Part shown: positions 3,200 through 50,119 of the stretch, piece by piece | Position numbering within the stretch: position 1 is the first letter of the stretch | Layout: the number at the start of each line of letters is the position of its first letter | Source: Carcharhinus amblyrhynchos | Lineage: Eukaryota | Length of the DNA stretch: 64,000 nt | Reading direction: 5' to 3' | Assembly: GCA_965287045.1 (NCBI GenBank) | Contig: OZ336878.1 | Location: 101,370,001 to 101,434,000 of the forward strand | Notes under the pieces: generated by a model | The model's input: the letters and a program-made list of their open reading frames with translations, nothing else | Databases searched by the model: none | Told to the model about the DNA's origin: nothing | Made by a program: the position numbers and the translations under genes

Positions 3200-4564
3200 T
3201 TATCTTATGGAACCAATGTTCTTGTATTGACACATGAGAAGATGCTTGAAGGTTTTCTTAAAGGTCGGATTACAGAGCGCATAGCAAGCGGGGTTGACAG
3301 TGCTATTGATGTAACAGAGCCAATATCCAATAGTCCAGACTGTGTCAGGGACACTGCTTGGACTTATGGTGTAAATGAGCACCATGACAAAGTATGGGCT
3401 CAAAGTGATGATAAATGCCAAGAGAAGAGCCAGGACAGTCCTAGTTACCTTCTTCTCCCGGGACAGGGCTCCCTTACTCTTCTCAAAAGCTGTGCTGGTA
3501 ATCGAAATGATCTTCTCTGCGCTACTTTCGCTGTCATGCCCATTCTTGCTGATGACATCTGCGACTGTTCTGATTGTGGTGGCACTATCAGCACCATTTT
3601 CAGATTTGCCTATAGCTTTTATGGAAGAGAGTTTGGGGTTGTCCATTCTTAAATGGCTTGATGGGACCACACTGGGGTGAGGTAATTTACCAGGAGACGG
3701 CGTCGCCACCTGGCCATCCTTACTAGTTAATATTTCTCCAGTTATTTTGACATTTTGCTGTTTGTCATGTGACAAAAAAATAGTACCATCTAATGTGTTG
3801 TTTTGGTTCGGCTCCATTGTGCTGCCGTTCACTAGAGAGGGTGAAATGGTGCCCTTGCTGGATCCCGGCACCTTTTTATTCCCTTTGATTCGACTTTTGC
3901 TGGCTCGAGCTATTTCCACAGAGAGAACAATTATAATGAGTGCAGGGGCATAGAAAGTAGCTACAGCAGTGCCAAAGATGATGGCTGGATTGGAGAGGAA
4001 CTGTACATAACACTCGCTCTCACTAACTGTCCGTTCGCCTACGGTGAACTGCCAGAAGAGAATAAGAGGAACCCAGATCGTAAATGGTACCACCCAAATT
4101 GCTGCAATCATCATCCCCGCCACCTTCACTGTTCTCTTCACGGGGAAGCTCAGGGGCCTAGTCACACAGAAATAGCGATCAAAGCTGATGACTAGAAGGT
4201 TCGCGCAAGAGACATTGCTGACAAAATAATCCAGAGCGAGCCATAAGTCACATACCACTGGGCCCAATGGCCAGTAGCCCATTACAATGTAAGTGGTGTA
4301 TAGGTTCATAGAGAACACACCAATAAACAAATCAGCGCAGGCCAAGCTGAAAAGGAAGTAATTGTTAATAGTTTGTAAATGTCTGTTTAGTTTGATAGAA
4401 ACAATGACCAAAATGTTTCCAATAATTGTCACCAAGCTTAACGCAGCTGTCACAGTCACAATAAGGACCACTTCAAACGTTTTGTAAGGACTCGCTCTTT
4501 CAGCGTCAAACAATCCTGTTGGGTTGCTGAGAAATGAATTGACTGCCGTTGAGTTTGCCATCAT
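3200..4564 (-). CDS. CHRM2: Muscarinic acetylcholine receptor M2-like GPCR, paralog A (454 aa, single coding exon)
   Basis: Intact ORF with M2 hallmarks [60 protein letters not shown] and [13 protein letters not shown]. True start is ATGATG at 4564 (the track's 4594 is TTG). Preceded by a polypyrimidine tract with AG acceptors. A divergent paralog, not necessarily the CHRM2 ortholog. Confidence 0.93.
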
Positions 4565-4771
4565 TTGCTTCTGATGTGTAGGTAGCACTGACAAGGCTAA
4601 AGTACAGAAAATAAGAGAAAAAAATTGGGAATCATTTCACAGTGAATAGTCAACCAGCAACTCACTGACTTTCAACCAGCAAAACTATCTATTCTTACAA
4701 ACTTCAATACTTTTAGCAGAAAGGACTCGGTTTTAATTAGGAATCATCTCAAAGGTTGTCCAATGTACACT

Positions 4772-5012
4772 TACATAAGAACATAAGAAATAGGAGCAGG
4801 AGTAGGCCATCTAGCCCCTCAAGCCGGCTCTGCCATTCAATAAGATCAGGGCTGATGTGATAGTGGTTCAGTTCCGCTTATCCACCTGCTCCCCTTATTG
4901 GTCAAAATTCCCTTAATTCCCTTATTGGTCAAAAATCTATTTGTCTGTGACTTAAACACGTTCCAAAGATTCATTACCCTCTGGGAGAAGAAGTTCCTCC
5001 TCAACTCTGTTC
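4772..5012 (-). mobile_element. CR1 LINE 3' fragment
   Basis: cataagaacataagaaataggagcaggagtaggccat is the reverse complement of the CR1 3' tail. Absent from the paralogous site in unit B (about 27670). Confidence 0.75.
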
Positions 5013-6506
5013 TATCGTTATATTATTCTATTTAATTATAAGCTTATCCTTAATTATTTGTATGGAACTGAACACAGATGATGATGAGTGACTTTTCAAA
5101 TACATCTCTCAAGGTTCATAGCTTCATCGCTCCAGAATAACTCGATTAAACATCTTTGAAAACTTAAATGTTCTGCATTTCCCCCGAGAGGGAGAGAGGA
5201 ATCTGAACCTGAGTCACTTCATGTCGAAGTCATGTGTTTAAATGCAGAAATTCATGGGTTTTTAAGAATAAAGGCTTAAAACAAATTTTAATTTCTCTAA
5301 TTTTGACAGCCATTTAATTTGAAACTTGTATGAGGATTGTGCTGAGTATGTATATATATATATATATAATATGTGAGGATAACTTTTAAAGCAGAAATTT
5401 GAAGGCAAAAGTAGGAATGCAGTGCATCAGACTCGGTCACCAAATCAGGAAATCCATCACTTGTGCTCATGTGTGTAGATGATAACTTCCTCTGGTTTAA
5501 CTCCTGTGCCTTTACTCAGCTATTCCAATTCACCTTTAATTATCCTGAATTTGTCCCTCAATCTCACTCATTTGTTTATCCTTTATGTAGATATTTAATT
5601 TCTCATATTGCCAACATGTCCTGAATATTGAATCATTTGATCTGTGTGCTGCGTTTATGGTAGCTAATAAACTTACCTCGTCATTGACTCAAGAGAAGCT
5701 GTTTAAATTGACTCCGACTAAAAAGTAAATATATTTAGATTGTGAAAATGTATCTTGGGAACTGGATTATTAATAAGATGTGGCCTAGAAAAGGGGTGGG
5801 GCTATGTGGGAGAGCGGATTCAATAAATAAGGGCAGCCAGAAAACTCCACCTCACCTGAAGGCATAACAAAATCGAGCACAGTCCAGGAAGTTAACAAAT
5901 TAGGGGATCTCATCTGCGACCAATTATAACAAAGTGCACTCAAAAATTTCAAGTATTAGCTTTGTAAACCTTCTCTACACCCTCTCTGATGCCTTTATAT
6001 CACTTTTTTATAACATGGCCACCAGCTCTGCTTATAATAGTGTGCAACGTTGTGCACTGAACTCTTAAATATATGTGTGGTCTAAACATGTTTGTTGCAG
6101 ATTAAAAATAACTTCTCTACTTTTCAAATCTATCCCTCTACGAATAAACCCTTGTGTTTGCTTTGCCATGTTTTTATCGCAAGGCAAGCAGGAGGCCACA
6201 GTGTATCTTTTAGTGATTGACGTATTTGGAGCAAAACATCAATTTCTGCATCAATCCTAAGCGGCTTGAAATTTCCAAGTAACGTGAGCTCGCTATTTCG
6301 CTAACGAAATGTTCCACTGCACACTTCTTTCTGTCAGGCTTCATTTTTCCCACTATTTGCCGCTCTGAAAATTTAACAATATCCTTCTAAAATCTTTTGC
6401 AGTCTTCCCAACCATGACACCAAATGCCTACCCAATCTACCCACAAAAGTTGATTGCACATGGAATGGGTTGGACAATGATCTTGGAAATTCTTCAGTTC
6501 TTTTCA

Positions 6507-7404
6507 TTATTTAATCAATTTAACAAGTTGAGTAAATGGATATTTGACCACATTCACCAACTGCTCTTTGAACTCAGTTTGACTAACAGCATAAATAAAA
6601 GGGTTTTTACGGCAATTCAGGAGCTGCAGCATGAATGCTATTATGCCAATAAATGTCAGCAAAAATCCAGATTCATACCCTCTGAACCACATTCCAGGCC
6701 ATGTGTAATACGTTGCATACACTAACTATAAGAGGATGCAATCTGCAGAAATGTAAAACAGTAAAATAATACATTTTCTTTGACTCTCCCCCTGTGACAT
6801 GCTGGGACTCTTGCCAGTGCTGTGATGCTCGAGTCTCCTACAGACTCTACTGGCCAAGAAAACATGTCTGAGAGTGAAATCATTGAGTAGCAGAATGAGA
6901 ACAAGTGGGACAACCGGAGTGAGAATGTAGTAGAGGAGCAGAAGTGTTGACCAGACTGGTGAGTCCAAAATGTTTCTTGGCACAAAACAAAAGGGGTCAT
7001 TCCACAGCTGAAATCTATCTGAAAATATAAAATACCATGTGGTCTCTTTCAAACCATTCAGTAAAGTCACTGTTCCCAGAGCCAGCACTGCAGTTTTCTC
7101 AGGGCAATATTTCCTTCCCAGCTTCTGGCAACAAATGGCGACAAATCGATCAAAGATTAAAATGATGGTGAACCAGATGGAACAGTCTGTGGCTGCATAA
7201 AGCAGGGCACCATATTACACTTTGGGATGGAGTACACAAAAAGTAATTCTTGCTGATGAACAAACGGAATGCGCCTCATCATCAGATCGGTAATAATTAT
7301 AATAACCAGTAGATTTGCTGCTGCCATGGCCACCAGGTAGCGGATCACAAAATTGGAGAGCCCACACCTCTCCCAGAAGAGGATCATAATGGTCACCACA
7401 TTAA
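6507..7404 (-). pseudogene. GPR139: GPR139-like GPCR exon 2, unit A (disabled)
   Basis: Colinear with the intact copy at 30100-31007. Acceptor cacAG|TTAAT at 7405/7404. Net 4-nt deletion near 7212 (frameshift) and TGG>TAG nonsense at 6726-6728. Confidence 0.88.
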
Positions 7405-7520
7405 CTGTGAGGAGGAGACATGAACAAGGACATCTTCCATCAGATTGAAAGCACAGTCACCAGTTTCATTGAGTATTTCCTGACATATGGAAACATTTGT
7501 AGTTTCTTTAATGATATGTT

Positions 7521-7925
7521 AGTGTCTGGCCTCAGAGAGGTCTATATGATCTCATAGAGGTCTGTAAAATAATGAGCAGGCATAGATCAGGTAGTTAGTC
7601 GATGTAATCTCCCAAAGGTAGAGGAGTCTAAAATTAGAGGGCATAGGTTTGAGGTGAAGCGGGAGAGATACAAAAGGGTCCAGAGGGGCATTTGTTTTCT
7701 CACAGAGGGTGGTGAGTGTCTGGAACAAGCTATCAGGGGTAGGAGTCAAGTAGGGTATAATGTTGTCTTTTAAAAAGCTTTCGATAATTACATGGGCAAG
7801 TTGGATAAAGAGGGATGTGGACCAAACACAGGCAATTGGAAATAGCTTAGTGGTTAACTAAAGGGGTGGCATGGACAAGTTGGGCCGAAGTGCCTGTTCC
7901 CATGCTGTAAATCCCTATGACTCTA
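7521..7925 (+). mobile_element. CR1 LINE 3' fragment inserted in the GPR139-like intron
   Basis: CR1 ORF2 end (agagggcataggtttgaggtg..ttctcacagagggtggtgagtgtctggaac) and ctatgactct tail, flanked by atgtt. Empty site in unit B at about 31120. Confidence 0.85.
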
Positions 7926-9419
7926 AATGTTGAATTGGTTCTACTCTGTTCCATTTCACGCTACTACCGACTTACTTCTTTGCTACGTTTGTGAAAGGCG
8001 GAAGCGTTCACACAAGATCAATTGGGAAAAACCTGAACATATTAAGAATAAAAGCTGAACAAAATGTGACCTGTCCTGATCACAGAACCTCTGCATGCTG
8101 CTCACGCTGAGGAAACTGCTGCATGTGCAGACAATCTGCTCCAAGTGTACGTGGGAATTCTATCCCATGCTGTGCGCACCTTGTCCTTCATAAATACAGC
8201 ATTCATAAAGACAACATTCCTTGGTCATGATGTTGTATTTCAGTCTGTGAATGTGATTTAAGGGCACCCTACTGGAAACAGTAAGCAAATGCTGGCACTT
8301 TGTATCTTTGCTGACAGGTTTCCTGCCTCTGCACAGTGAGCTCAGTTCATGCATTGAAAAAGCAGATGACAACTTGTTGATTAAATAAGACAGTAGACAC
8401 GAAAGATCATCAGATCAACCTCTGGCACCAAGAGGCTCAAAAGGAAAGATTGCGTCCTCAGAACATTGTTGAATGATAATGAGTCTCTGTAACTTGCACC
8501 TACCAAGAACAAAGGCATTTGCCTGCGACACAGGTTTCATATGAGGTGGGTGGGTGGGGAGGCCAAATAAAGCTGCCCTTTCTCGCAAATCAAACAAATA
8601 AGGGCCATTGATGTTGCTGTTTGCACTAGATGGACAATGGCCATATTACTATTGCCCTGTGATCCGGAGAGGTAGCCCATGCCTAGATAATAGCGGGTAG
8701 CCGAATCTCCTATTCAGGGATACTGACAAAAAGACCTGCAATCTCTTAACATGAATGATGATTAGTGAGAATTTCTGGTTGGCAATCAATGGAAATGATC
8801 ATAGCAGTTATAAGCAGGGTTTTACCGCCAAGAAGTCATGTTCTTGCAGAAGATCACACGCAGCAATGGCAAGATTTTACCTTTATAGAATGAACGTGTT
8901 CACCATCAGAAAAGGTACAACAAGCGATCTGATGAAACCCTTGCCAATGTTCAGATGCTGCATTCGCATCATCTCTAACTGATGGAAGGATGCCAGCTCG
9001 AAACAAACAGTGAACTGTACAATGACAGTGTTACCTGTTAAAAGCAGTGACTGTCATTGAATGAAAGCAATCATTCAATGAATTTCATATTTCCATTGCA
9101 ATATCACATGGAGAGAAACAGTTTGTAAAGGCCAGGTAAAAGCTGCTGCAGATCTAACCCTTTCCTTGTTCTGGTGAAAGTAGGTGAGTTTGCTGCAAAT
9201 ATGAAGTTGACAAGAAATGTTTACAGTAAAGGACAGGGCAACCTGATAGAAATTTGTCCATGAGGTTTGCTGAGAGATTCGTCCGCAGTTTATAATTCAA
9301 TAAAGTCCAAACAGCAATTCGACAGGAGAGTTTTGGAATCACTGCAATCCATCAACTTACTTTCTCACACATTTCAATGCTTCTTCAAACAAAAAAACCA
9401 CTTAGCAAAAAAAAAACCA

Positions 9420-9640
9420 CTGGGGATGCTCTAATCTGAAACAAATTCATAAAATGCTGGATAATCTCAGCAGGTCTGTCAGCATCTGGGCAGAGAGAGA
9501 GAGAATAGACTTAAAATTTCAAGTCCACATCACTGGAACTGTGAAGTGGGGTCACACAGACTCGAAAAGTTAAATATTAACGAAATATTTATCTCCCCAC
9601 AAATGCTACCAGTCCTGCTGAGCTTTCATCCAGCATAATC
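9420..9640. mobile_element. Short inverted-repeat element (Penelope-derived/MITE-like) in the GPR139-like intron
   Basis: aaatgctggataatctcagcaggtctg...ctaccagtcctgctgagc inverted arms. Copies sit at the same position in the other units (about 32540-32720 and 49445-49630). Confidence 0.55.
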
Positions 9641-10016
9641 AGAAATGCTACAGAAAGTGAAACATCTGAAAGCACAGATATCAGATTGTAAGCTGGACTG
9701 CGGGACATGGATTCTGAGCCATCGGCACAAACCATGTCAACATTTATTTATGTTCTAACAGAATCTGATTTCAGATTTCTATTCTGTATTAGAGATGAAG
9801 GATATGTTGAAAGTGACAGATACGCCATTCTTTAAGTTCAGAATGAAGCGAATATTGTGTAATAATAAAATCAAACCAAATGAAAACAACATCAAGAGCA
9901 AAACGCAAGAATTGCACTGAACCTACCTCAGAGCTGAATCTACTGATAAACAGGATGAGAAGATTAATGTAGTGGAACATGGAATATAGAATTAATAGCT
10001 AGATATTGGGACTTAC

Positions 10017-10098
10017 CAGGGATGCCAATGTCACCAATGAGTGGATAGAAAATCTTTTCTATCCCAAGGATGAAGAAGGTTATCTTCTGCTGGTCCAT
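10017..10098 (-). pseudogene. GPR139: GPR139-like exon 1, unit A (MDQQKITFFILGIEKIFYPLIGDIGIP, phase-1 donor)
   Basis: 82-nt ATG-initiated exon ending CCTG|GTAAGT. Splices in frame (G+TT=Val) to exon 2 at 7404 and completes TM1 (YP...GIP-VN). Confidence 0.8.
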
Positions 10099-10177
10099 TT
10101 CTATAGAGCCACTGATCCTTGTTACCATTAGATGTGAAACTCCCCCTGATATGAAGAGATAAAACACATTGGAAGCA

Positions 10178-10194
10178 GGCCTTTATGAATAGAA
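10178..10194 (-). promoter_or_regulatory. Conserved TATA-like motif upstream of GPR139-like exon 1
   Basis: The 16-mer TTCTATTCATAAAGGC (minus strand) is identical in all three units (10179, 33275, 50198), about 80-95 nt upstream of the ATG. Confidence 0.45.
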
Positions 10195-10539
10195 GGGTGA
10201 GATCTCCAGAGACTCAAAGGGGATCCATGGAGACTAATATTAATCATAGTCACTGAACAAACAAATTCATTGAATTCCTTCCAATCTGACACTTAGTGGC
10301 AGTGCATTTGTTTGACAATGTTTGAAATGTGTTCCAGTGTCAAAGGACAAATAAAAGCACACACCTTGTGGCTAAATCTATTACTGCTGCAGCCTTGTGT
10401 CCTGTGTGTTGATGGTATGAAGCTCGATGGTCAGCTGTAGGTAGTCATGGTCTATTTTCAAAATGTTTAAAATAGCACTGGAGTTTGTGATAAGATTAAT
10501 ACATATCTAAAAGAGAAAGTTGATTAAAATAGTCAGGAT

Positions 10540-12305
10540 ATGGAGATGCCAGCATTGGAGTGTGGGTGGGCACAGTAAGAAGTCTCACAACACCAGGTTC
10601 AAGTCCAACAGGGTTATTTGGTATCAGGAGCTTTTGGAGTGCTGCTCCTTCATCAGGTGAATGGAGAATAGGTTCACAAACACGGTATATATAGGCAAAA
10701 ACACAATTGCAAGATAATTACAGATTGGAATGTGAAGAATGTTTGAAATGCAGTCTTTATAGATAATCAAGTCTTTAAATTTAGAGACAGTACGAGTGGA
10801 GATAAGGATAATTACAGGTTGAAGAGGTGTGAATTGTCTCAAACCAGGACAGTTAGTAGGAGCTTGCAAGTCCAGGCCAAATGGTAGGGGTTACGTGTAG
10901 TGTGACATGAACATAAAATCTCAGTTGCAATCATCCTCACACATGTGGAACTTGGCTATCAGTTTCTGCTTGGTTACTCTGTGCTTTCCTGTGCCTTGAA
11001 GGCCGCCTTGGAGAGTGCTTACCCGAATATCAGAGGCTGCATGTCCTTGGCTGTATAATTGTTCCCCGACTGGAAGGGGACACACATGTCTGGTGTTTGT
11101 TGTATGTTTCCGTTCATCCATTGTCCTAGCATCTGCATGTCCTCGTCGATGTACCACACCTTGGGACATTCATTCCTGCAGGATATGAGGTAGACAACAT
11201 TGGCTGAGTTGCATGAGTGTGTACCTTGTACCTGGTGGATGGTGTTCTCATGTGTGATGGTGGTATCCATGTTGATGATTCGACACATCTTGCATAGGTT
11301 GTCATGGCAGGCTTGTGTGGTATCATCCTGAAGGCTGGGTAATTTGCTGCGTACAATGATCTGTTTGTGGTTGGGCGATTGTTTGACGGAAAGTAGTAGG
11401 ATTGGGCTTGGCCTTGGCGAGATGTTTGCCTTCATCGATGACATGTTAAAGGCTCTCAAGAAGATGTCATCGTTTCTCCACTCCGGGGAAGCACTGGGTG
11501 TCAAAAGGTACTCTGTCAGTCATGTCCTGTGTTTGTCCTCTGAAGAGAAGGTATGATTTTTATGCTGTGGCACATCAAAACTGTCGATCGATGAGTTCAG
11601 TGCCATATCCTGTTCTTATGAGTGTTTCTTTCAGCTTCTTTTATATCTGTTGTGTTCGTCTTCGTCTGAGCAGATCCTATATATACAGAGTGCTCGTCCA
11701 GAGGGGATGGCTTCTTTAACGTGTTTAGAAGGGGAACATTGTGAAGTTATCGGTGCGCTTGCAGTACGGTGAAGTCCTTGATGGAGATGAGTGTGTCCAA
11801 GAATGCAACCGATTCTGGACAGTGATCCATGGTGAGTCTGATGGTGGCATGGAACTTGCTGATATCATCATGTAGTAATTTCAATGATTCTTTGCCGTGA
11901 GTCCAAAGGAAGAAAATGTCATCAATGTATCTGGTGTATAGCGACAGTTAAATATCCTGTGCTGTGAAGAGGTCTTGTTCGAATGTGTGCGTGAACATGT
12001 TGGCCTGTTCCGGTTTGAATATTTGTCCCCGTGAGCAGTTTGTGTGTCTGGATGAAGAACTGGTTGTCTAAGGTGAAGATGTTATAGCCCAGGATGAAGT
12101 GGATGCGTTGTAGAATTGTGTGTGGAAATTGGTAGTTGTCAGTGTTGAGTACTGAGGCTGTCCCAGCAATGCCTTCATCGTGGGGGATGCTGGTGTAGAG
12201 TGCCAAGATGTCCATTGTAACGAGGAATGCTCCTGGTTCCACTGGACCCTGGGGGCTGATTTTCAGAAATAAGCCCACAGTGTTGCGACAGAAGCTGGGA
12301 GTTTT
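10540..12305 (-). mobile_element. Penelope-like retroelement (RT plus GIY-YIG endonuclease), 5'-truncated and frameshifted
   Basis: ORF pieces LVTMDILALYTSIPHDEGI, FTLDNQFFIQTH and RYIDDIFFLWTHG (RT), and HSCNSANVVYLISC..WYIDE (GIY-YIG). Terminal repeat with a hammerhead-like motif at about 10626-10660. Confidence 0.88.
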
Positions 12306-13080
12306 TTGTTAACTTTGCAGATAGTATATGAAGTAGGAAAATGTGAAGTTATGCAATTTGTCAGAAAATATATAAGCTGAATATCAAGTAACAAGAAAAA
12401 GATTGGAGAAAGCTGCAGCAAAGAGGGATTTGGATGTACTTGGGCGTAAATCACAAAAAGCTAGCTTGCAAGTTCAGCATATAATAGAGAAATGAAATGG
12501 AAAGTTGGTATTTATGTCCACAGGAATGGAGTATAAAAAGGGAAAGTTTTGTTCCAACTATACAAGACAATGTGATCTGTTTTGGTCTCAGGAATGATAT
12601 AGTGGAGGGAGTCCAGAGGAAGTTCACTCAGTTGATCTCGGGTGCGGAGGGATTTTCTTATGAGCAAAGAATGAGTAGATTGGGCATATACTCACTGAAG
12701 TTCAGAAGAACGAGATGCGATCTTGTTGAGACCCATTGGGTTCTCTGGGGTTTGACAGGGAGGATACTGAGAGATTGTTTACCCTTGTGTGAGAGTCCAG
12801 GACCAGAGGTAATGGAATCAGAGTAAGGGGTTATTCATTTAAGACAGAGGCTAGGAGGAATTTCTCCTCTCGGGGACAGCAAATATGTACATTATTTTTA
12901 CCACAGGAGGCTGTAGAGGTGGGGTCATTAAGTATGTTCTAGGTTGATATGGACAGATTTTTCATTATTGGAATAAGGGTGAGAAAGTGGAGGTGAGGAT
13001 ATCACGCCAGATCAGGAATGATCTCATTGAATGATAGAACAAACACGATAGGCTGAATGGCCTTCTTCTGCTCCAACATG
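12306..13080 (+). mobile_element. CR1 LINE ORF2 3' part
   Basis: EGVQRKFTQLISG..FSYEQRMSRLGIYSLKFRRTRCDLVET motif and CR1 3' UTR. Confidence 0.85.
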
Positions 13081-14583: not shown

Positions 14584-14606
14584 GTATATATATATATATA
14601 TATATA
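14584..14606. repeat. (TA)n microsatellite
   Basis: Directly visible. Confidence 0.9.
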
Positions 14607-15573: not shown

Positions 15574-16457
15574 CTAAGCTGTTACATTATTAATTAATTG
15601 AACAATTGGTGTAACTGAATATTTCACTATCATCATAAGCTCCTGTCTGAACTTGGACTGAGTCACCCTGTTAAAAAAAATGTTTCTGCAGCAATTTAAT
15701 TTTAACAGCAATACTTTGACTTCATCAAAACTGTATCAAGAGTTTTTGTAATTCTTGGGATTTTTTTCCTGTAACATTGTAATATGTGAAATGTATAACA
15801 TGTAAAAGCCATGGAATTGTGAAGCTGCCAGATATGGTGACGTGTAAAATACAGACTTCCTCCTGTTGTCCATCTCTGCGTTTCTATGATCATCCCTTTT
15901 GCTCTGAGCCCTCAGTCTTTGATGGACTTGACTGTTTACTAAAATGCATCTGACTGTATGAATGCTGAGCAACAGAATAATTGCATATGGGACATTGGTG
16001 TTAAATCTTACACCCCAAGGTCTGCATAAAATCTTAATTTTTCATTGCAGAACCAGGGGACTTAATGAACGATTCCTCTACCTTCCAATCCAAAGTAAAA
16101 TGTCATGCTTTTAAACAGAGAAAAATGCCACATGATGCAATAACAGCTGCAGTTTTCTCGGTGCAATAATTCATTTTCAACTTCTGGCAATAAAAGGATA
16201 AGAATCGATCAAAAGAGAAAGTGACAGTGAGCCAGAAAGAGCAGTCTGGTGCTGCGAAAAGCAGGACAGTGAGGACGCTACACACTGAGGTAATTTTCAG
16301 AAACAATTGCAGGAAATAATAAAAACTGATCCTGAAGAGTATGACATTAACAATAATGACCAGAAAATCAGCTGTTGCCATGCCCGTCAGGCAGCAAGTA
16401 GTGCAGGCGGAGAGGTCACATTTTCAGACTGACAGGATCACAATTGCCAGTAAAGAA
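15574..16457 (-). pseudogene. GPR139: Divergent GPR139-like GPCR pseudogene (exon 2 only, different subfamily)
   Basis: LAIVILSV*KCDLS..MATADFLVII, DCSFWLTVTFSFDRF..CQKLKMNYCTEKTAAV, EMDNRRKSV, LNCCRNIFF..VTQSKFRQEL. Multiple stops and frameshifts, degraded acceptor. Confidence 0.82.
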
Positions 16458-26089: not shown

Positions 26090-27451
26090 TTATCTTATGG
26101 AACCAATGATCTTGTATTGACACATGAGAAGATGCTTGAAGGTCTTCTTGAAGGTTGGATTACACAACGCGTAGCAAGCGGGGTTGACGGTGCTGTTGAT
26201 ATAACAGAGCCAGTATCCAATAGTCCAGACAGTGTAGGGGACACAGTTTGGATTAACAGTGTAAATGAGCACCATGACAAAGTATGGGCTCAAGGTGATG
26301 ACAAATGCCAGGAGAATAGCCAGGACAGTCCTAGTCACCTTCTTCTCTCGGGACGCAGCTCCCTTCCTCTTCTCAGCAGCTGTGCTCATAATTGTATTAG
26401 TTGTATTGTCTGCTCTGATGTCCCTGTCATTCCCATTCTTGCTGCTGACATCTGGCACAATCCTGGTTGTGGTGCCACATTCGGCACCCTTTTCTAATTT
26501 GCTAACTACATTTATGGAAGAGAATTTGGGGTTATCTATGCTGAAACCATTTGATGGGTTCACGCTGGTGCCAGCTGATTGACCATGAAGCCACTTCACT
26601 TCTTTATTACTAGTTAATAAATCTCCAGTTATATTGGCATTGTGCAGTTTGCCATGTGACAAACAATTGGTACCATCTGATTTGTTGTTATTGTTCGGCT
26701 CCATTGTGTTGTCTTGCCCTATAGATGGTGAAATGCTGCCCTTACTAGATTCGGGTTCCTTTTTATTCTCTTTCATTCGACTTTTGCTGGCACGAACTAA
26801 TTCCACGGACTGGATTACCATGATGAGAACATAAAGATAGAAGGTAGCGACGGCAGTGACAAAAATGATGGCTGGATTTGAGAGGAACTGTACATAACAC
26901 TCGCCCTCACTAACTGTCCGCTCTCCTACAATGAACTGCCAAAAGAGGATGGGAGGAACCCAGATCATAAATGGCACCACCCAAATAGCTACGATCATCA
27001 TCCCTGCCACCTTCGCTGTTCTCTTCACAGGGTAGGTTAGGGGCCTGGTCACACACAAATAACGGTCAAAGCTGATGACTAGAAGGTTTGTTGAAGAAAC
27101 ATTACTGACAAAATAATCCAGAGCGAGCCATAAGTCACATACCACTGGGCCCAATGGCCAGTAGCCCATGACAATGTAAGTGGTGTACAGGTTCATTGAG
27201 AATATGCCAATAATCATATCAGCGCAGGCCAAGCTGAAAAGAAAGTAATTGTTAATAGTTTGTAAATGTCTGTTTAGTTTGATAGAAACAATGACCAAAA
27301 TGTTTCCAATAATTGTCACCAAACTTAAAGCAACTGTCACAGTCAGAATGAGGACTACTTCGAACGTTTTGTAAGAACTCGCTCTTTTGCCGTCAAACAA
27401 TCCTGTTGGGTTGCTGAGCGATGCGTTGACCTCCGTTGGGTTTGCCATCAT
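26090..27451 (-). CDS. CHRM2: Muscarinic acetylcholine receptor M2-like GPCR, paralog B (453 aa)
   Basis: Intact ORF closely similar to paralog A, with DRY and NPACY motifs. Acceptor cttttcAG at 27475, 23 nt upstream of the ATG. Confidence 0.93.
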
Positions 27452-30099: not shown

Positions 30100-31007
30100 T
30101 TACCATTTAATCAATTTAACAAGTTGAGTAAATGGATATTTGAACATATTCATCAACTGCTCTCTAAACTCGTTTTGAGTCACAGCATAGATAAAAGGGT
30201 TTGTACAGCAACTCAGGAGCTGCAGCATGAATCCTATTTCCTCAACAAATTGAGGTAACAGTCCAGATTCATATCCTATGAACAGTGATATAGCCCATGT
30301 GTAATACACTGCATACATTGCCCATAAGAGGATGAAATTTGCAGAGATGACAAACAGTAAAACAATAGATTTTCTTTGACTTTCCATCTCTGGGACACTG
30401 GGACTCTCACCACCGTTGCGACCCTGGATTCTTCTACGGGCTATATTTGACAATAAAATGTGTCTAATGCTGAAAACATTGAGCAGCACAATCAGAGCAA
30501 ATGGAACACCCGGGGTGAGAATGTAGTGAAGGATTACAATTGTTAACCAGAATGGTGAGTCCAAAATGTTCCTTGGCACAGAACAAAACCAGGTGGCGTT
30601 CCACAGCCGATACCTATCTGAAAATATAAAATACCACGCAATCGCTTTCAAACCACTCAGTGAAGTCACTGTTCCCAAAGCCAGCGCTGCAGTTTTCTTG
30701 GTGCAATATTTCCTTTTCAGCTTCTGGCAACAAATGGCCACAAATCGATCAAAGATGAAAGTGATGGTGAACCAGACAGAACAGTCTATGGCTGCATAAA
30801 GCAGGGCACTGTGGATATTACACTTGGGGATGGAGTACACAAAAAGCAACTCTTGTTGATCAATAACTGGAATGTGCCTCATCATCAGGTCGGTAATAAT
30901 TATAATAACCAGTAGATCTGCTGCTGCCATGGCCACCAGATAGCAGGTCACACAATTGGAGAGCCCACACCTCCCCCGGAAGAGGATCACAATTGTCACT
31001 ACGTTAA
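30100..31007 (-). CDS. GPR139: GPR139-like GPCR, exon 2 (intact; 329 aa with exon 1)
   Basis: Open frame VNVVTIVILFRGRCGLS..LVAMAAADLL..DCSVWFTITFIFDRF..YCTKKTA..RKSIVLLFVIS..LQLLSCCTNPFIYAVTQ. Acceptor cacAG at 31008. 908 nt plus the 82-nt exon 1 gives 990 nt. Confidence 0.9.
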
Positions 31008-33112: not shown

Positions 33113-33194
33113 CAGGGATGCCGACAGCAGCAAGGAGAGGATAGCAGACCTTCTCTAAGTCAAGGAAGAAGAAGATTATCTTCCACTGGTCCAT
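33113..33194 (-). CDS. GPR139: GPR139-like GPCR, exon 1 (MDQWKIIFFFLDLEKVCYPLLAAVGIP)
   Basis: ATG at 33194, phase-1 donor CCTG|GTAAGT, in frame with exon 2. Intron is about 2.1 kb. Confidence 0.85.
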
Positions 33195-33949
33195 TCCTGT
33201 GGAGCCACTGTTCCTGGTTACTGTTGGCGGTGAGGCTCCCACTGACAAGAAGAGATAAAACAAAGCGAAAAGAGGCCTTTATGAATAGAAGAGTGAGACC
33301 ACCAGAGACACATATTGGTTCTACAGAGACTGATATTAATTGACTCACTAAACAAACAGGTTCAGTTAACTCCTTTCAATCCGCCAGTTAGTAACACAGC
33401 GTATCTTTGACCAGTATGAAATGTGTGCCAGACTCGCAAATTTAACCACGCCTAAGCCAAAACGCATTCCGCTTTTTTGTCATTATGTCTCATGAGAGAA
33501 TAGTTTGATCCGTGGCACTCAACTCTGCGTTAAGCATCTCTAGGGGCGAATCAGGATCCAATTCTGTTCTCCTTCCATGTTCTATAGTTGTATTGTATGT
33601 AATATTGCTAAATTAAATGCATCAACTTGAGATCTCAGAATCAGTATGAATGACATTAAAAGATGGTGTTACACTTTCCATCCGCGATGCAGTGGAAACA
33701 GTTTACCGAATTAATAGCTACATGTAGAGACTTCCAATGTCACCAACACGATCAGTAAATACGAATACTTGAAGAGGAAATATATTATTCTTGCCTCAAA
33801 TCAGAGACTTTCTTTCACATTCTTCCACAAGCTTTAATTATAATTCATGGCACACTGAAATTAAATCACAATCACACAATTTATCCCAATCTATTTGCCC
33901 TGAAACATCATCCCATAGGCATCCAAAAAAGATACCAACTGCAGGAGTG

Positions 33950-35304: not shown

Positions 35305-35769
35305 ATTCCAAATAACGCTGTTGGACTTTAACCTGGTTTGTGAGACTTCTTACTGTGCCCACCTCAGTCCAACGCCATCATCTCCCACATCATTTCTATT
35401 AATATCGTGACTGATGTGAAGTAATACTTTGAAATGAATATCTTATGAATAGAACTCTGTCTGATGACAGCACTAGTGATCATGGAGCCTAATATTGTTT
35501 ACATTCACTTAACAAGCCACTCAGTTGTATCCCTAATTGAAGCAACGCTTCTATATCACCATATAGGTGTGACCAGATGGGAAGTTAGAAATTTCCAGCC
35601 CACAACATAATACTCGAAGCTGCAGGAATTTAACAAGGAGTTGTTTCAGAAGTGAGGAGGTGCTGTTCCACTGGAATCATTGCACACCAGGACAAATTCT
35701 GCATCACAATCACAATCTTGGCGAGGGTGCAGTCGTCCTGCAATGCCATCCAGAAGGCGGCTAATAATG

Positions 35770-37612: not shown

Positions 37613-37659
37613 TCATCACATTCTAGTAACGTATTGCACAGGGCGTAATATCCCTCTCT

Positions 37660-41900: not shown

Positions 41901-42100
41901 CTGAACCTCTTTAGAAAGGATACGGTCAAAATCTCCGTCACATTCTTCCACAACTCCCAGAGAGTCATCTGTTCCTGTCTCCAATGTAAAACTTACAATC
42001 AGTCCCATTCTAGCACACACCAAATTCACTGTTATCTTTGATTTTACCACCTTCAGTCTGAGGTGCTGCCCAGCCATGAACCTTGTGAAAGAGCCTTCGG
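38950..42100 (-). mobile_element. Highly decayed LTR-retroelement/ERV-like internal sequence (gag/pol remnants)
   Basis: Insertion relative to units A and B, with short coiled-coil-like and pol-like broken frames on the minus strand. No clean motif. Confidence 0.3.
40447..40772 (-). mobile_element. HE1-type SINE
   Basis: gagcacccggaggaaacccatacagacac..ctactgtgccacggtgccgccc. Confidence 0.85.
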
Positions 42101-43146
42101 CTCCCCACTAGAAGTTCAAGGTACTCCCTTCCTCTTTTACTCACAGCATACTTTCACTGCTGACAATGGAGGTTTCTGCTCTGCAAGTCTCGCCCGCCCC
42201 GAGGGTAAATGGTAAAATTTCAGCCCACAATAGTTCAAAGTCAAACTGTGCCGTGTCGAAGGGGAAAGTATTTTACGATCTCGCCGGAGTTTCCTGTCTC
42301 TGCACAGTTTGATTTTAAAACATGGTGGTTCTGATCAACTTGTCTACTTGCCGTATAGTTTGAGAGGTTTGTCTTCCCTCTGAAGCTTTGGCTATTATCT
42401 TTCCTAAATGTATCCCACCTTCATGGCTTTGCACCCTGAAATTCACATGGTAGTGGTCTGGCCTACCGGCGCAGCTTTGGCATCGCTCAGCCATAACCAC
42501 AGCTCTGCCACATACTATTACACTCCCGGTCCTGAGTTCTCATTTAACATTCATTTGTTACTTTGCTGGACCACTGGGCAGGCTTGCTGCACTAAGAGGA
42601 TGGTGAAAAAAAATATTCAACTCTGTTTAAGAGCTATTCCGATTAAACAATACGAATATCCTGCTGACTCCGGCAAATTGTCATAATGGATTCTCCCAAC
42701 TGACCACAAGGGGCAAAGGAACATGTTACATTAGTTTATTTATGTTTCAAGCAAGAAGAGAAACAGAGAAACGTCTGGAGGTACACCATCCTCTGACACA
42801 GCTCTAACACAGCTCCCTGATGTAACAATCACAAGAACAACATTGAAAAACAACTCTCAGCTCCAATACAAAGATACAGGCTGCTAAACAATTAGTACAG
42901 TTTTTTTATAAATTCAGATCTTTTTCTTGCTAAACCTGCACCCAAAAGCTTGTCTGTAATCTATCATCAAGCTGTAGGTTCTTCTAAAAGGTAGACAATC
43001 TTGCAGCCCAGTTCTGCTTCCATTAGGAACTCATTTGAAATGCATGGGATTTTACTCTAATTAACTCAATCTATTAATTTTCCCTTTCAAGAGTTATCAT
43101 GATCAAGATGTAGAAAGTGTCCCTGAAATGCGGTTTGTGGCCGGGT

Positions 43147-44451
43147 TTATCGTATCTTACTGATGTTCTTGTATTGACATATGAGAAGACGCTTGAAGGT
43201 TTTCCTGAAAGTCGGATGACACAGCGCGTAGCACATTGGGTTGACGGTGCTATTGATATAACAGAGCCAGTATCCAATAGTCCAGACTGTGTAGGAGATA
43301 CAGCTTGAACAAATGGTGTAAATGAGCACCATGACAAAGTATGGGGTAAAGGTGACAATAAATGCAATGAGTAAACTCAGGATGGTTCTAGTCACTTTCT
43401 TCTCTCGGGACGCAGTTCCCTTCCTCTTGTCAGCTTGTGTTGTGGTCATTGTAATCATCTTATTGACCGTTCTGATTTCTCTCTCATTCCCATTGTTGCT
43501 GCTTACACCTGGCACTATCCTGCTTTTGCTATCACAGTCGCCATTTCTTTCGTATTGGCTAACTATATTTATGGAAGACAGTTTGGGGTTGACCATCCCA
43601 AGAGGGTTTGATGGGGCTACACTGGGGACTGGTGATTTATTGAGAAACCATTTCTCCTCGTGGCTGCGACTATCAGCTAGTATTTCTCCAGTTATTTTGA
43701 CATTTTGCAGTCTTACCTCTGATAACCCGTGAGGAGCATCTGACACTGTGTCATCATTTTTCTCCTTTTTACTCACTTTCATTCGATTTTTGCTGGCACG
43801 GGCTATTTGCACGGACAGGATAATTATGATGAACGCAGGGGTATAGAAGCTAGCTACGGAAGTGCCGACGATGACACCTGGATTTGAGAGGAACTGTACA
43901 TAACACTCACCCTCACTGACTGTCCGCCCCCCTACAATGAATTGCCAGAAAAGAATGATAGGAGCCCAGATGCTAAACGGCAGCACCCAAGCAACAGTGA
44001 TCATTACTCCTGCAACTCTCACTGTTCTCTTCATGGGGTAGCTCAGAGGCTTTGTCACACAGAAGTAACGGTCAAAGCTGATGACAAGGAGGTTCATCCC
44101 AGAGGCAGTACTGACAACATAATCCAGAGCAAGCCATAAATCACAGATCACTGGGCCCAAAGGCCAGTAGCCAATAACAATGTAAATGGTGTATAGATTC
44201 ATAGAAAACACACCGATAATCAAATCAGCGCAGGCCAAGCTGAAAAGAAAGTAATTATTAATAATTTGTAAACGTCTGTTTACTTTGATAGAAACGATGA
44301 CCAGAATATTTCCTATAATTGTCACCAGACTTAAAGATCCTGTCAGAGTCACAATGAAGAGCATTTTGACCGTTGTGTAAGGTCTCAATCTTTCAATCAA
44401 GCTTGTTGAGTTGTTGAGGGATTCATTTGGCATTGATGAGTCTTCCATCAT
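43147..44451 (-). CDS. CHRM2: Muscarinic acetylcholine receptor M2-like GPCR, paralog C (434 aa, shortened ICL3)
   Basis: Intact ORF with [14 protein letters not shown] and [19 protein letters not shown]. Strong acceptor ctttcttcttttctgcAG at 44471, 19 nt before the ATG. Confidence 0.93.
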
Positions 44452-44724
44452 TTTCCCTCACGTGGCACAACTGCAGAAAAGAAGAAAGATTAAGAAAGAG
44501 ATTTCTGATGTATTAACGTTAAAAAGCGACTAAGGTGACTAAATGAAGTTCCATCAAAAATATAAAACGCTATTGGGTTCTGAGAAAGTTCAATATCTTT
44601 GTCAGATATCTTTACTTCCTACCTGCCTGGATGGGTGCATCTCCAGCAATACACAAAAGCTTGACACCTCCAGGACGAAACAGCCGTCTTGATTTCCCTT
44701 ATCTCAATCAAATTCAGTTTCTGT

Positions 44725-45020
44725 TTTAAAGTTTATTTATTAGTTTCACGAGTAAACTTACATCAACATTGTGGTGAAGTTACTGTGAAAATCCCCTAGA
44801 CGCCACACTCCCGTGCCTGTTTGGGTACCCTGAGGGAGAATTTAGCATGGTCAGTGCACCTAACTAGCACATCTTCCAGACTGTGGCTGGGGACTGGAAC
44901 ACCCACACAGAGTAGGGGAGAATGTGCAGACTCCGCATAGACAGTGACCCAAGATGGAAATTGAACCCAGGTCCCTGGCGCTGTGAGGAAGCTGTACTAA
45001 CTACTGAGATACGGTGCGGC
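44725..45020 (-). mobile_element. HE1-related SINE
   Basis: Reverse tRNA-like head (gaacccaggtccctggcgctgtgagg) with a V-domain-like body. Confidence 0.75.
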
Positions 45021-45884
45021 TTGCATCTTTTTATGAGTGCAAATACGTGGATAATTTTCTGATGCTTATAATTTAAGGCAAAAGTGGGAACACATCACAA
45101 GCTTAAAAATGACAACAATCTTCACTGAAGCCAGTGACCTAAAATAATCCATGCCCCATAATTCAGAATATTCAAATAGCTAGTGCATGTCCATTAACTG
45201 TTTAACTTTTAAAGAAAACTGGATAACAATAATCATAACTTTTCATATTTATTGATGGTCTGCCAAATCCAAGGCATTGGAGAGGAATGATGCAGGATTG
45301 ATACATTGTGTAAGGAATGATAGATAATGGCGAGAGGCTTATGCAAGGTGAAGGCAGAATGAGACAAAAAACCAAGCAAAAACAATTGGAAGAAATGGGG
45401 GAAGAGAAAGGAGATAATAACATAGAACTGCGAAGCAGACTGAGAAGGAGGGAGGCTAATTGCTAAAAATCTAACAAATACTTATCAAATGGTTCAATGT
45501 ATTGTTGAACCAGCATTTCAAGTGTGCACATTGGATTAAGATGCTTCTGGAAATGGATCGACTGTCATTGCTTTCATATGCTTAAATGCTTTTGGCGTGA
45601 AGTACACAGAAAAATGATTTGGACAATATGATAAGGAAAACAATTGAGAGAAAATCTCCTTTAGGTTTGTAGAAACAATCCCTCAAAGAGTTGAGAATAT
45701 CAAGAATGCATTTATTTTCTACTGATCTTCACATAGCTATAATAAATACAAATGTGCATTATATAAATCATATAGAGCAACAGCCTTTCAAGAATCCTCA
45801 ACCAGGTCCTTTGTTAGAGGAAATATTAGGCTTTCCACCTTCACAATTGAAGGGTGAGTAACAGAAATTGATTAGGCCCCTTTG

Positions 45885-46040
45885 AGTGCACTTTTGAATG
45901 GACTTACCTTGCATTAAGTTGATCTTTCTCTACAACCTCGCTATGATTGTAACACTACAGTCTGCACCCTTTGTTTCCTTCTCTATGCACGGTATGCTTT
46001 GTCTGTATAGCGCAAAAGAAACCATACTTTTCACTGACAT
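45885..46040 (+). mobile_element. Rex1/Babar 3' UTR fragment
   Basis: Matches 16985-17130. Confidence 0.65.
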
Positions 46041-46275
46041 CTCCCAGTCCAGTTGGGTGGCCCAAAGAAACTCTAAAAAACATCTGGCACTTGTCGTACT
46101 GCCACAAGAAGCTCAGGCACTATTGGGTTGCAGCCCATTTCCCTTCCTCAAAGCTACATTCTAGAAATTGATGTGATCATTGGGACCATGGAGTCAGGGA
46201 AGCAGTGTTATTGTTAGATGAGTAGCAGCATTCCACTGTGGGAATACAGCATTTCACACCTAACCATCTTACAAT

Positions 46276-46546
46276 CTAACACCGAGCCTGCACCAACAAT
46301 AATCCCACCCAGGTCTTATCTCCACATATTACCCTCCTACTTCCCCTCACACCAAGGGGTAATTTATCATGGTCAATCAACCTAACCCGCATATCTTTGG
46401 ACTGTGGGAGGAAACCGGAGCACCCGGAGGAAACCCACACAGACGCGGGAAGAATGTACAAACTCCACACAACGGAGGCCGGATTGAACCCAGGCCCCTG
46501 GCATTGTGAGGCAGCAGTGCTAACCAATGTGCCACAGTGCCACGCC
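46276..46546 (-). mobile_element. HE1-type SINE
   Basis: ggactgtgggaggaaaccggagcacccggaggaaacccacac..gaggcagcagtgctaacc. Confidence 0.85.
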
Positions 46547-47099
46547 ATCTTTTACTTTATCTGTTCAATCATCCACTCTCAGCCGAAATGAAGCAATATG
46601 GTAGACAGAGCGGACCATTAAATTAAAAGGCTGTGGAGCCTGGAATCCTGGCGTTAACATTGAAGGATGTTGTGTAATGAGTTGCCTCACCCGCTACGCT
46701 CTGAAGTCCTCTAGTTAAACAGTCTTGGAAGCTGAACGAATGAAAGTTTTCAAGACTGAGATCGCTGTTTTTTTTGCGCTAGGTAAGAGTGTTAGGGACT
46801 ATAGGATAAGCAGGAAAATGAAGTAGAGGCACAAATCAAGTCTGGTCTAATCTAATGGTGCAATATGTTTGAGGAGTTGTCTGGCCGTCCTCTGCTGGTC
46901 AGATCAGATCAGTCTAGAAAAAAAGAGTGGTGGAGTTGCAATGAGAAGGAACTAAACATGTCAGTGCTGGAAATAATTAAAGGAATGTTTTGAAAAGCTG
47001 TGTGCTAAGAATATTGTATTGGTTACCTTAAATACAATTAATTCAGATCTGAAATTGGGAGTCTGGAATATTGCAAGAGATGTGCCATTAAATTGTGGA

Positions 47100-47646
47100 G
47101 GTTACTGACGAGTGACAGTGGATTCTTTCAGTGAACTATTCGTCATTCACAACTGATGGAGCATGGAAACAGGCCCTTCGGTCCAACATGCCCATGCCGC
47201 CCTTTTTTTAAAACCTCTAAGCTAGTCCCAATTGCCCGCATTTGGCCCATATCCCTCTGTATCCATCTTACCCATGTAACTGCCTAAAAACTTTTTAAAA
47301 GACTAAATTGTACCCACCTGTAACACTATCTCTGGCAGCTTGTTCCAGACACTCACCACCCTCTGTGTGAAAAAAAATGCCCCTTGGACATTTTTGTATC
47401 TCTTGTTCTTTCTTTCCACGATGCCTGATCTGCAGCGCATTTCCAGCATTTGTTATTTATTTATTACAGGGGCTTTTTTTCTTTTTAAGTTCTGCTAGGA
47501 ATTAACTCACGCACATCTCACTGAAAGTTTGCCTAATTCAATGTTTCAGATTAAGTTTTTGGCAACTTAGCAAAATGGGAATGTGACTATCAGTTGTGAA
47601 TGATGAATAGCTCACTGAAAGAATCCACTGCCACTCATCAGTAACC
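47100..47646. repeat. 58-bp inverted repeat pair (47100-47157 / 47589-47646)
   Basis: ggttactgacgagtgacagtggattctttcagtgaactattcgtcattcacaactgat and its reverse complement, with 4 mismatches. Confidence 0.85.
47158..47403 (-). mobile_element. CR1 3' fragment
   Basis: Reverse complement of the family at 59270-59515. Confidence 0.85.
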
Positions 47647-48097
47647 ATCGCAACTATTGAACTGCTGACATCATTTCAACAAGCAATTTTCCACAATATG
47701 TCTAATGATCTCATGGGCACTGCACTGTAGCAGTTTGTTGTCCAGGCACCCCGCACAAAGATTTGAACACATGTGATCAGCAGTAATAGCTTGGCCAGAG
47801 GTATTGCCCATTCAGTATATGTGACCCTCAAGGGCTGTTGGACGAGTTATTTTATCCATTTTAGTCTATTTATTAAAATAAAACTGTTTGGCTCCTACGC
47901 TGCAGATATCGCCCATCTTAAGCATTCTACCCTAAAGTGGCTTGCATTTTAAACTCACTGGTCTGGATTTTGCTGTAGTAAAAAACCTTCAGACAATGCA
48001 CATCTTGCTCAGTGAGATAAAGCAGGTGTGAAGGCCCACAACATGAATTATGTTGGAATCGTTGGCTGACAATCAAGCAAATGACAACATCAGTAGT

Positions 48098-48493
48098 CAT
48101 GATGTGGAGATGCCGGCGTTGGGCTGGGGTAAACACAGTAAGAAGACTCACAACACCAGGTTAAAGTCCAACAAGTTTATTTGGTAGCAAACACCACCAG
48201 CTTTCAGAGTGCTTGCTGCTCCTTCGCCAGGTGAGTGGGAGTTCTATTCACAAACAGGGGATATAACCTGCGCTTAATGCTCTCTCCACTCACATTGTCT
48301 GTGCCTTTAAGACTTGATCACCTATAAAGGCTCGCATTCCAATCATTAATTTGTAAATTGAGTTTGTGCCTTTATATGCCCTGTTTATGAACACAGTAGA
48401 ACTCCAACTCACCTGGCGAAGGAGCAGCCAGCATTATGAAAGCTAATGGCTTTTGCTACCAAATATACCTGGGGTTGTGAGATTTCTTACAAC
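48098..48493. mobile_element. Penelope-derived element with inverted terminal repeats and opposed hammerhead-like motifs
   Basis: About 48145-48270 is inverted at about 48370-48493. Same family as 10540-10700 and 35260-35392. Confidence 0.75.
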
Positions 48494-48811
48494 GTCAGTT
48501 GTGAGCAGGGTTTTGCCATCACAAAGCTATGTTCTTGCAGACGAACATCCACAATGATGTCGAGAGGCAAACTCATGGGTGGCGTCTGTGGTAAATTTTG
48601 CCTTTGCAGAATTGACATGTTCATCATTAGAAAAAGTGTGGCAAGCGATCTGATCTGACCTTTCATTCCCATCATCCCCTCAATGATGGAAACATGCCAA
48701 CCCGAAATCAATATTGAAATGTACCCGTGATCGTGTTATCTGCTGGTGGCAGTGACTGCCATTCAATGAAAGCAACCATTAAATGGGATTTCTTATTTTG
48801 GATGAAATTTT

Positions 48812-49116
48812 GGGTAGCAAGCTGCTACGGTGGTTAGAACTGCAGCTTTGCAGCGCCAGGGACGTGGATTCGATTCCCGGCTTGGGTCACTGTCTGTGCG
48901 GAATTTGCACATTCTCTGTCTGCGTGGGTTTCCTCCGAGTGCACCGGTTTCCTCCCACAGTCCAAAAATATACAAGTTAGGATAGGTTGGCCGTGCTAAA
49001 TTGTCAGGGGAAGTAGCAGGATCAGTACGTGGGGTTACAGGGATGTTGCCTGGGTGGAACATGTGTCGGTGTAGGCTTGATGAGCCTCCTTCTGTACTGT
49101 AAGGATTTTATGATTC
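48812..49116 (+). mobile_element. HE1-type SINE
   Basis: A/B-box head (ggtggttagaac..ggattcgattcccgg), V-domain and tgattcta tail. Absent from units A and B. Confidence 0.85.
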
Positions 49117-50037
49117 TACAACACACAAGAAAAACAGTTTGTAAAGGCCAAATAAAAGTTGCTGCAGATTCGACCATTTTCTTTCTTATTCTGGTGAAAG
49201 GAGTTGAATATTGCAGCAAATGTCAAAGATCATAAGAAATATTTACAGCAAAGGACAGAGCAACCAGGTAGAAACTTGTCCATGGAGCTGACACAAATAT
49301 TCGCCCACTGGTTACAAGCAGCAGAAAAATTCACAATGTTTTCAAAACAATGATTGAGCATTGGGAATCAATCGAATACATTAGCACACTTTACGCAGAC
49401 AACTCGCACCTTTTCAAACATCAAGCCGTCTAGCAAATGAAAAATAAAAACAAAATACTGTGGCTGCTGGAATCTGAAACACAAACAGAAAATACTGGAA
49501 AATCTCAGCAGGTCTGGCTGCATCTGTAGAGTGAGAAAACAGAGTTAACATTTTGCGTCCTTATGACTCGAGCTCTGAAGTGAACTCCAGTTTACCTCTC
49601 GGCAGGTACTGCCTTAAATGCTGAGTTTTTGTTGAGTGTGTTCCGTTTTGCATGTGGAAAGTGAACTGAAGTCAGAGACACCTGAATGTGAGTTGGACAG
49701 CGGCAGGTGGATTCAGAGCCATCAACGCACAATAGTTCAAAATACGTTCATCAGATTTCGGATTTCTAATCTGTGGCGGAGATTTGGACATTCATTTAAT
49801 ATTAAGAAGACCTTGGGTGCGTGAATGGTGGAGAGTGAGCATGCACCATTCTTTAAGTTCAGAATGAAGTGAGTATTGTGCAATGATGAAGAGAAATCTA
49901 ATTAAAACCATTTCAAGAGCAGAATGCAAGAGGTTAACCAAAACAATGGAAGAGCCGAATTAGCGATTTAAAAAGCTGACATGATTAATCCAGCACACCC
50001 TGGATAACAGATTTAATAGCTGGGTATAGAGACTTAC

Positions 50038-50119
50038 CAGGAATGCCAATGGCTGCAAGGAGAGAATAGTAAATCTTTTCTAAGTCAAGGATGAAGAAGT
50101 CTATCATCCACTGGCCCAT
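50038..50119 (-). pseudogene. GPR139: Orphan GPR139-like exon 1, unit C (MGQWMIDFFILDLEKIYYSLLAAIGIP); exon 2 deleted
   Basis: 82-nt exon with ATG and CCTG|GTAAGT donor. Intron homology stops at about 48495 and resumes in post-exon-2 sequence at about 47410-47580. Confidence 0.75.

Follow-up and report, generated by a model that had tools for sequence, protein, structure and literature searches.

We analysed a 64,000-nt stretch of the genome of the shark Carcharhinus amblyrhynchos (contig OZ336878.1, positions 101,370,001 to 101,434,000; hereafter the window) and found three intact receptor genes derived from the muscarinic receptor gene CHRM2, each preceded on the same strand by the first exon of an unrelated "GPR139-like" G protein-coupled receptor (GPCR), here called the partner. 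We put at about even the chance that this arrangement reflects capture of the partner's promoter and first exon by a CHRM2 coding exon, with later retuning of the receptor. The single CHRM2 coding exon would have been copied as DNA and would have arrived, without its own promoter, behind a GPCR of an orphan family; the partner's promoter would drive its transcription and the partner's exon 1 would splice onto the CHRM2 acceptor. The chimera would then have been amplified as 13 co-duplicated cassettes, in which exon 2 of the partner decays while a promoter-like block and exon 1 persist, and the receptors, released from the CHRM2 expression pattern, would have been retuned in their binding pocket.

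Organisation of the window

As the initial annotation had described, each of the three M2-like exons has a GPR139-like exon 1 about 5.5 kb upstream on the same strand. This 82-nt exon, with an ATG, an open frame and a GT donor, begins at 10098, 33194 and 50119 in units 1, 2 and 3, and the distance from its start to the M2 ATG is 5534, 5743 and 5668 nt, respectively (5452–5661 nt from the donor). A whole GPR139-like gene was found in unit 2 only. The units are old duplicates, with 66–82% DNA identity in aligned blocks. An inverted M2-like pseudogene and a fourth GPR139-like pseudogene, both reported previously, are also present, the latter belonging to a different subfamily from the cassette partners. 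The features are as follows:

3200..4564, minus strand: CHRM2-derived receptor w1, 454 amino acids, intact single coding exon, splice acceptor 23 nt 5′ of the ATG
6507..7404, minus strand: GPR139-like exon 2 of unit 1, a pseudogene with a frameshift near 7212 and a premature stop near 6725
10017..10297, minus strand: promoter-like block (about 10099–10297) and intact 82-nt exon 1 (10017–10098) of unit 1, with GT donor
15592..16456, minus strand: decayed GPR139-like exon 2 of a different subfamily, part of a 24-kb repeat, from an M2-less pseudogene lineage for which no exon 1 was found
26090..27451, minus strand: CHRM2-derived receptor w2, 453 amino acids, intact, with P5.50Y, acceptor at −23 and an in-frame stop abutting the ATG
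30100..31007, minus strand: GPR139-like exon 2 of unit 2, uninterrupted, 329 amino acids including exon 1
33113..33391, minus strand: exon 1 (33113–33194) and promoter-like block of unit 2
43147..44451, minus strand: CHRM2-derived receptor w3, 434 amino acids, intact, acceptor at −19
50038..50312, minus strand: exon 1 (50038–50119) and promoter-like block of unit 3, matching exon 2 absent
51168..52070 (approximate), plus strand: inverted, truncated M2-like pseudogene, about residues 2–300, with stops and a frameshift

A weak partial match to the promoter-like block was also observed between units 2 and 3 (35411–35518, minus strand).

Cassettes across the genome

The genome (2.9 Gb) was searched with protein and DNA queries; copy counts are lower bounds, the C9 interval having been fetched in part. 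Canonical CHRM2 and CHRM4 were found on contig C6 and M1/M3/M5-type genes on three other contigs, and the key residues of these canonical genes were standard except at the variable positions 45.55 and 6.58. Contig C9, which includes the window, contained 13 full-length CHRM2-derived copies and 2 fragments within a 1.7-Mb stretch (99.7–101.42 Mb). Eleven of the full-length copies were intact and the other 2 were frameshifted. Seven of the 13 form a tandem array with 17–25 kb spacing, the last three of which are those in the window, and six are dispersed, including four which are inverted.

A same-strand exon 1 with its upstream block was found 4.1–10.2 kb before the M2 copy in all 13 units, and the arrangement in the window is therefore not due to chance. 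Together with the largely matching trees described below, this supports the earlier suggestion that the two families were co-amplified as a linked module. A DNA search of the genome with the exon-1 region gave 13 matches, 11 in cassette units and 2 weak ones on contig C104. We also observed a partial M2 duplicate between exon 1 and the intact copy A1 (G000:C9:101279654-101280304), at the place where exon 2 would be expected.

Promoter-like block, first exon and splice acceptor

Unique homology between canonical CHRM2 and the copies extended only from about −0.5 kb (−1.7 kb in one unit) to +2.1 kb of the ATG, and took in the coding exon, the splice acceptor and intron sequence. As homology is limited to the coding exon, acceptor and short flanks, the copies are DNA duplicates without a detectable promoter. 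Because they have intron and acceptor in common with the canonical gene, a retrocopy origin was rejected. The 180 kb surrounding canonical CHRM2 contained neither a GPR139-like gene nor the promoter block. An AG acceptor no more than 33 nt before the ATG is present in each of the 11 intact M2 copies and would imply an upstream exon.

Only three non-repeat blocks are common to distant cassettes: exon 1 together with a promoter-like stretch of 190 bp, exon 2, and the M2 exon. No other conserved block was found upstream of the M2 copies within 9 kb. The promoter-like block contains motifs which, judged by eye, we take to resemble forkhead, homeodomain and O/E sites. It was also found before unlinked members of the partner's family, at 5 of 20 loci for which the fetched flanks were short. 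A pyrimidine tract and AG before exon 1 might serve as an acceptor, but conservation did not extend to all units and no shared upstream exon was found.

Exon 1 (ATG, open frame and donor) was intact in 12 of the 13 units. Together with the promoter-like block it is present before all 11 intact M2 copies, and it is intact in all 6 units in which an intact M2 copy accompanies an exon 2 that is dead or missing. The exception is unit B, in which exon 1 is destroyed and M2 and partner are both dead. In units D and E exon 2 is dead in both, with a ratio of nonsynonymous to synonymous substitution rates (dN/dS) of 0.80, and exon 1 differs at 4 of 82 nt. The two units differ by 2 replacement changes in exon 1 versus 136 in exon 2 (Fisher P about 3e−4).

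Joining exon 1 to the M2 acceptor is predicted to give an open fusion with a 35-residue N-terminal extension in 8 of the 11 intact copies, while in the remaining 3 it is predicted to give an upstream open reading frame, which ends at the M2 start in w2 and w3 and overlaps it in C2. A gene model from the catshark Scyliorhinus torazame (P0130) begins with exon-1-type residues joined at the M2 acceptor.

Selection and decay in the two halves of the cassette

We obtained dN/dS by counting estimates with bootstrap. In 8 bootstrapped pairs of M2 copies dN/dS was 0.15–0.34 for the receptor core, with intervals below 0.5 in all 8 pairs, and 0.32–0.48 for the whole protein; the third loop evolves near neutrality, and the three youngest pairs gave 0.48–1.10 on few changes. 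The M2 copies are under purifying selection, and do not show the dN/dS of about 1 throughout which the initial annotation had named as a sign of neutral hitch-hiking.

Exon 2 of the partner was uninterrupted in 6 of the 13 units, broken in 5 and absent in 2. It was dead or lost beside 6 of the 11 intact M2 copies and uninterrupted beside the other 5, and two units with intact M2 have no exon 2 at all. Its dN/dS was 0.44–0.80 in 6 cassette pairs, versus 0.17–0.43 in 9 pairs of unlinked family members. With exon 2 broken or absent in 7 of 13 units and its dN/dS relaxed, the coding role of the partner is dispensable.

Trees, age and distribution

A DNA tree of exon 2 of the partner, built from 19 local copies and 20 unlinked ones, was compared with a DNA tree of the M2 copies. 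The two trees largely match: both contain (A3,A4)A5, the array clade, (D,E) and (C2,C3), and they differ in unit A2 and in weak deep nodes. Monophyly of all cassette partners had moderate support only. Birth-and-death turnover, also proposed earlier, is supported.

In quick protein trees the derived copies group with CHRM2, and not with CHRM4 or M1/3/5. In one of these, of 63 rows and with M1/3/5 and the two frameshifted copies left out, they form a clade (41 rows, Shimodaira–Hasegawa-like approximate likelihood ratio test (SH-aLRT) 98) which is nested in shark CHRM2 and which splits from CHRM2 after the Heterodontus branch (94). Its members come from this shark, Mustelus, two catsharks, basking, white and whale shark, and bamboo sharks. 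The tree indicates that the clade arose once, in galeomorph sharks. Conservation in other sharks is thereby borne out, but the label "elasmobranch" given to the repertoire is too wide: it is shared across galeomorph species, whereas the extra CHRM2 copies of rays and skates place outside the derived clade. Stingrays, mantas and skates have separate CHRM2 expansions (P0022-P0030, P0272-P0311) in which N6.52 is kept and other positions are changed, and over 20 distinct M2-like proteins are listed for Hypanus.

Mustelus orthologues comprise 8 one-to-one pairs and one three-to-one group, and w2 has its closest protein matches in Mustelus asterias (88%) and in catsharks, which places the source among carcharhiniform sharks. 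For 8 further shark species, the contigs carrying the extra M2 copies differ in length from the one carrying the canonical gene. Outside this genome, linkage is seen in two gene models and in contigs of close relatives: besides the S. torazame model P0130, a Mustelus model (P0116) joins the w3 orthologue to the exon 1 and exon 2 that follow it, and one contig, from a related organism, spans the w2 start and the unit 2 partner.

Identity of the partner

The window partner matched human GPR139 at E = 5.7e−5, the only full-length match among its top structure hits. This shark has a true GPR139 orthologue on contig C18 (L117:470-1420, minus strand), which is strongly conserved (E = 6e−158 to human) and was found by a loosened motif search (99 matches, 32 examined, of which 1 was the gene; a stricter motif gave none). 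The partner resembles GPR139 and GPR142 in being a class A seven-transmembrane receptor, its exon 2 begins at the same position in transmembrane helix 1 as in the C18 gene, and NCBI labels its relatives "probable GPR139". It differs in being only 24% identical to the C18 protein, in lacking P6.50, R6.51 and E3.32, in having DRF in place of DRY, and in belonging to a family of hundreds to thousands of copies rather than being a single gene. R6.51 and E3.32 sit at the Trp/Phe site of GPR139, according to the accessible text of PMC8807744. Orthology of the partner to GPR139 was therefore ruled out by the C18 gene, the low identity and the two missing residues. The idea of an amine receptor paired with an amino-acid receptor is not supported either, as the partner is also the decaying half of the cassette; the cassette is unlikely to be a two-receptor sensing pair.

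By sequence, two-exon layout and upstream block, the window gene fits the expanded shark "probable GPR139" family. We found 130 scored matches at ≥ 58% and 3430 first-look candidates for this family in the genome. A database search returned 1616 relatives, and of the 120 that were listed, 119 bear the label GPR139. A database search with one family relative returned the family label and distant peptide receptors only. Family arrays on many contigs share the 190-bp upstream block.

Proposed capture and alternative explanations

Several observations weigh against capture of exon 1. The frame of the join to M2 is open in only 8 of the 11 intact copies and so is not conserved. Only 1 of 194 M2-like proteins starts with exon 1, and a weak exon-1 profile search over longer proteins returned P0116 only. 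Gene models P0129 and P0008 attach unrelated exons to the same M2 acceptor, which suggests that gene finders join this acceptor freely. An exon of 82 nt is a small target, and its survival after the recent death of exon 2 is unsurprising by itself. Between A1 and w3, exon 1 differs by 1 silent and 8 replacement changes. This is indicative of gene conversion, a process which has probably affected exon 1 in at least one pair and could also explain the pattern in D and E. It should also be noted that old intron homology may have eroded, so that the CHRM2 promoter is best described as not detected, its absence being unproven.

The leading alternative, which we consider possible but rather unlikely, is passive hitch-hiking, in which a CHRM2 copy landed among GPR139-like genes, the duplicated unit happened to take in one of these neighbours as a passenger, and the selected M2 copies use other, poorly conserved promoters. 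The ubiquity of the partner family favours this, as do the passenger-like decay of exon 2, the unconserved frame of the join and a second, M2-independent pseudogene which is also carried in four array units. However, hitch-hiking does not readily account for linkage in 13 of 13 units, including dispersed and inverted copies up to 1.7 Mb apart with otherwise unalike spacers, for the survival of block and exon 1 where exon 2 is deleted, for the lack of any other conserved upstream block within 9 kb or for the constraint on exon 1 in D and E. Shared control without a direct splice, either by read-through from the whole upstream gene or with the block acting as an enhancer on a cryptic local start, seems improbable. 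In its favour, no AATAAA was detected in units A3, w1, B and C2 over the 3.5 kb leading up to the M2 start, and in the P0116 model an M2 copy continues into the exon 1 and exon 2 that follow; P0116 is itself a prediction, however, and the retention of the exon 1 ATG, frame and donor in units without exon 2 is left unexplained.

We find it harder still to credit the view of the initial annotation that both receptors are kept together for a joint function, the detection of an amine and of an aromatic amino acid. The congruent trees, the uninterrupted exon 2 in 6 of 13 units (5 of them beside intact M2) and a partner dN/dS below 1 in most pairs speak for it, but the partner is far from true GPR139, lacks R6.51 and E3.32, is dead or lost beside 6 of the 11 M2 copies that are intact, and evolves under weaker constraint than its unlinked relatives. 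Neutral duplication debris throughout would agree with the 2 frameshifted M2 copies, the 2 fragments and the high dN/dS of the youngest pairs; it is already largely refuted by the low core dN/dS in 8 of 8 pairs and by the Mustelus orthologues, and we give it almost no credence.

The receptor pocket

Retuning of the receptor, the second part of the capture proposal, was addressed by comparing w1–w3 with human M2 and 56 relatives. All three keep D3.32, Y3.33, W4.57, Y6.51, Y7.39, Y7.43, DRY and NPxxY, and share changes at six positions: T5.39I, A5.46T/S, Y5.58S, W6.48L/F, N6.52F and N6.58Y. The ammonium cage (D3.32, Y3.33, Y6.51 and Y7.39) is intact in w1–w3, and Y6.51F was found in 1 of the 11 intact copies. 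N6.52F, which requires two base changes, occurs in 8 of the 11, including all three window genes, on two separate branches. Of the intact array copies, 6 of 6 carry Y5.58S and 4 of 6 carry W6.48L/F, again including all window genes; P5.50Y is found in w2, and R3.50 and Y7.53 are retained. Mustelus and catshark orthologues carry the same Y5.58S, W6.48 and N6.52F changes.

The available text of PMC9870890 describes the ammonium head as bound in M2 by D103 and a tyrosine lid (Y104/403/426), with N404 a key acetylcholine contact. Two points temper the case for retuning: N6.52 is kept in 3 of the 11 intact copies, and the same source indicates that rotation of W400 is not needed for activation by acetylcholine. 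As D3.32 and the tyrosine lid are kept while N6.52 and other residues are lost, head-group binding may have been kept, ester recognition lost and coupling altered. The window clade is likely to bind acetylcholine poorly. It is predicted to favour ester-less ammonium compounds such as choline and methylamines, and to couple to Gi/o weakly or differently; choline and methylamines are candidate ligands here, and the roles of T5.39 and Y5.58 are presumed. Trimethylamine oxide, a shark osmolyte, is a further candidate. That the clade is a galeomorph non-cholinergic family with captured promoter and exon 1, cage kept and ester contacts lost, which senses choline, trimethylamine or its oxide where the giant partner family is expressed, is a speculative and, taken as a whole, doubtful proposal.

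Relation to known systems

The best structure match was human M2 (E = 8.5e−159). The copies share with CHRM2 a single coding exon and upstream acceptor and are nested in shark CHRM2; they differ in being relocated, in numbering 13 extra genes and in an end-to-root divergence far above that of the canonical gene. Promoter or 5′-exon capture by duplicated genes is known to yield chimeric new genes. The cassette resembles such cases in that a promoterless coding exon lies behind an unrelated gene and is predicted to rely on that gene's start and first exon, and differs in that the copy is a DNA duplicate rather than a retrocopy, that the donor is a GPCR of a giant family, and that the chimera subsequently multiplied and has been retained across shark orders. 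With odorant receptors and trace amine-associated receptors it shares tandem arrays, pseudogenes, pocket turnover and a short proximal promoter common to the family, a likeness known here from the genes alone. Odorant-receptor promoters have conserved proximal elements, as stated in the accessible part of PMC5086798. The cassette is a variant of known processes, namely tandem GPCR turnover and, probably, promoter capture.

The cassette is real, old and under selection, and apparently undescribed. Our literature search, with subscription journals and supplements outside its range, found no paper on a shark M2 expansion, the cassette or the GPR139-like family, and the accessible part of a shark karyotype preprint does not mention these genes; NCBI annotations already list them as M2-like and GPR139-like. 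Muscarinic receptors had been described as never locally duplicated in vertebrates: the available text of PMC6298421 reports no muscarinic duplicates other than those from tetraploidy in its vertebrate set, the species list of which is without cartilaginous fish. In this shark a single muscarinic subtype has given rise to 11 further intact genes whose pockets are remodelled and which have been retained across shark orders, and expansion has occurred again separately in rays. The natural variants at N6.52, W6.48 and Y5.58 could be used directly to examine how ligands are chosen and how activation proceeds in a drug target that has been studied intensively, and with the cassette one can test whether a neurotransmitter receptor has acquired a new expression domain through capture. 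It also brings to notice a very large GPCR family of sharks that is mislabelled as GPR139.

Other features of the window

By eye we took pieces at about 56300–57400, 11019–12308 and 58774–59526 to be decayed retroelements, presumably of Gypsy-type integrase, Penelope-type and LINE-type; a Pfam search of these pieces gave no match. A 33-bp minisatellite of 26 copies (93% matches), with open reading frames on both strands, lies at 62678–63542.

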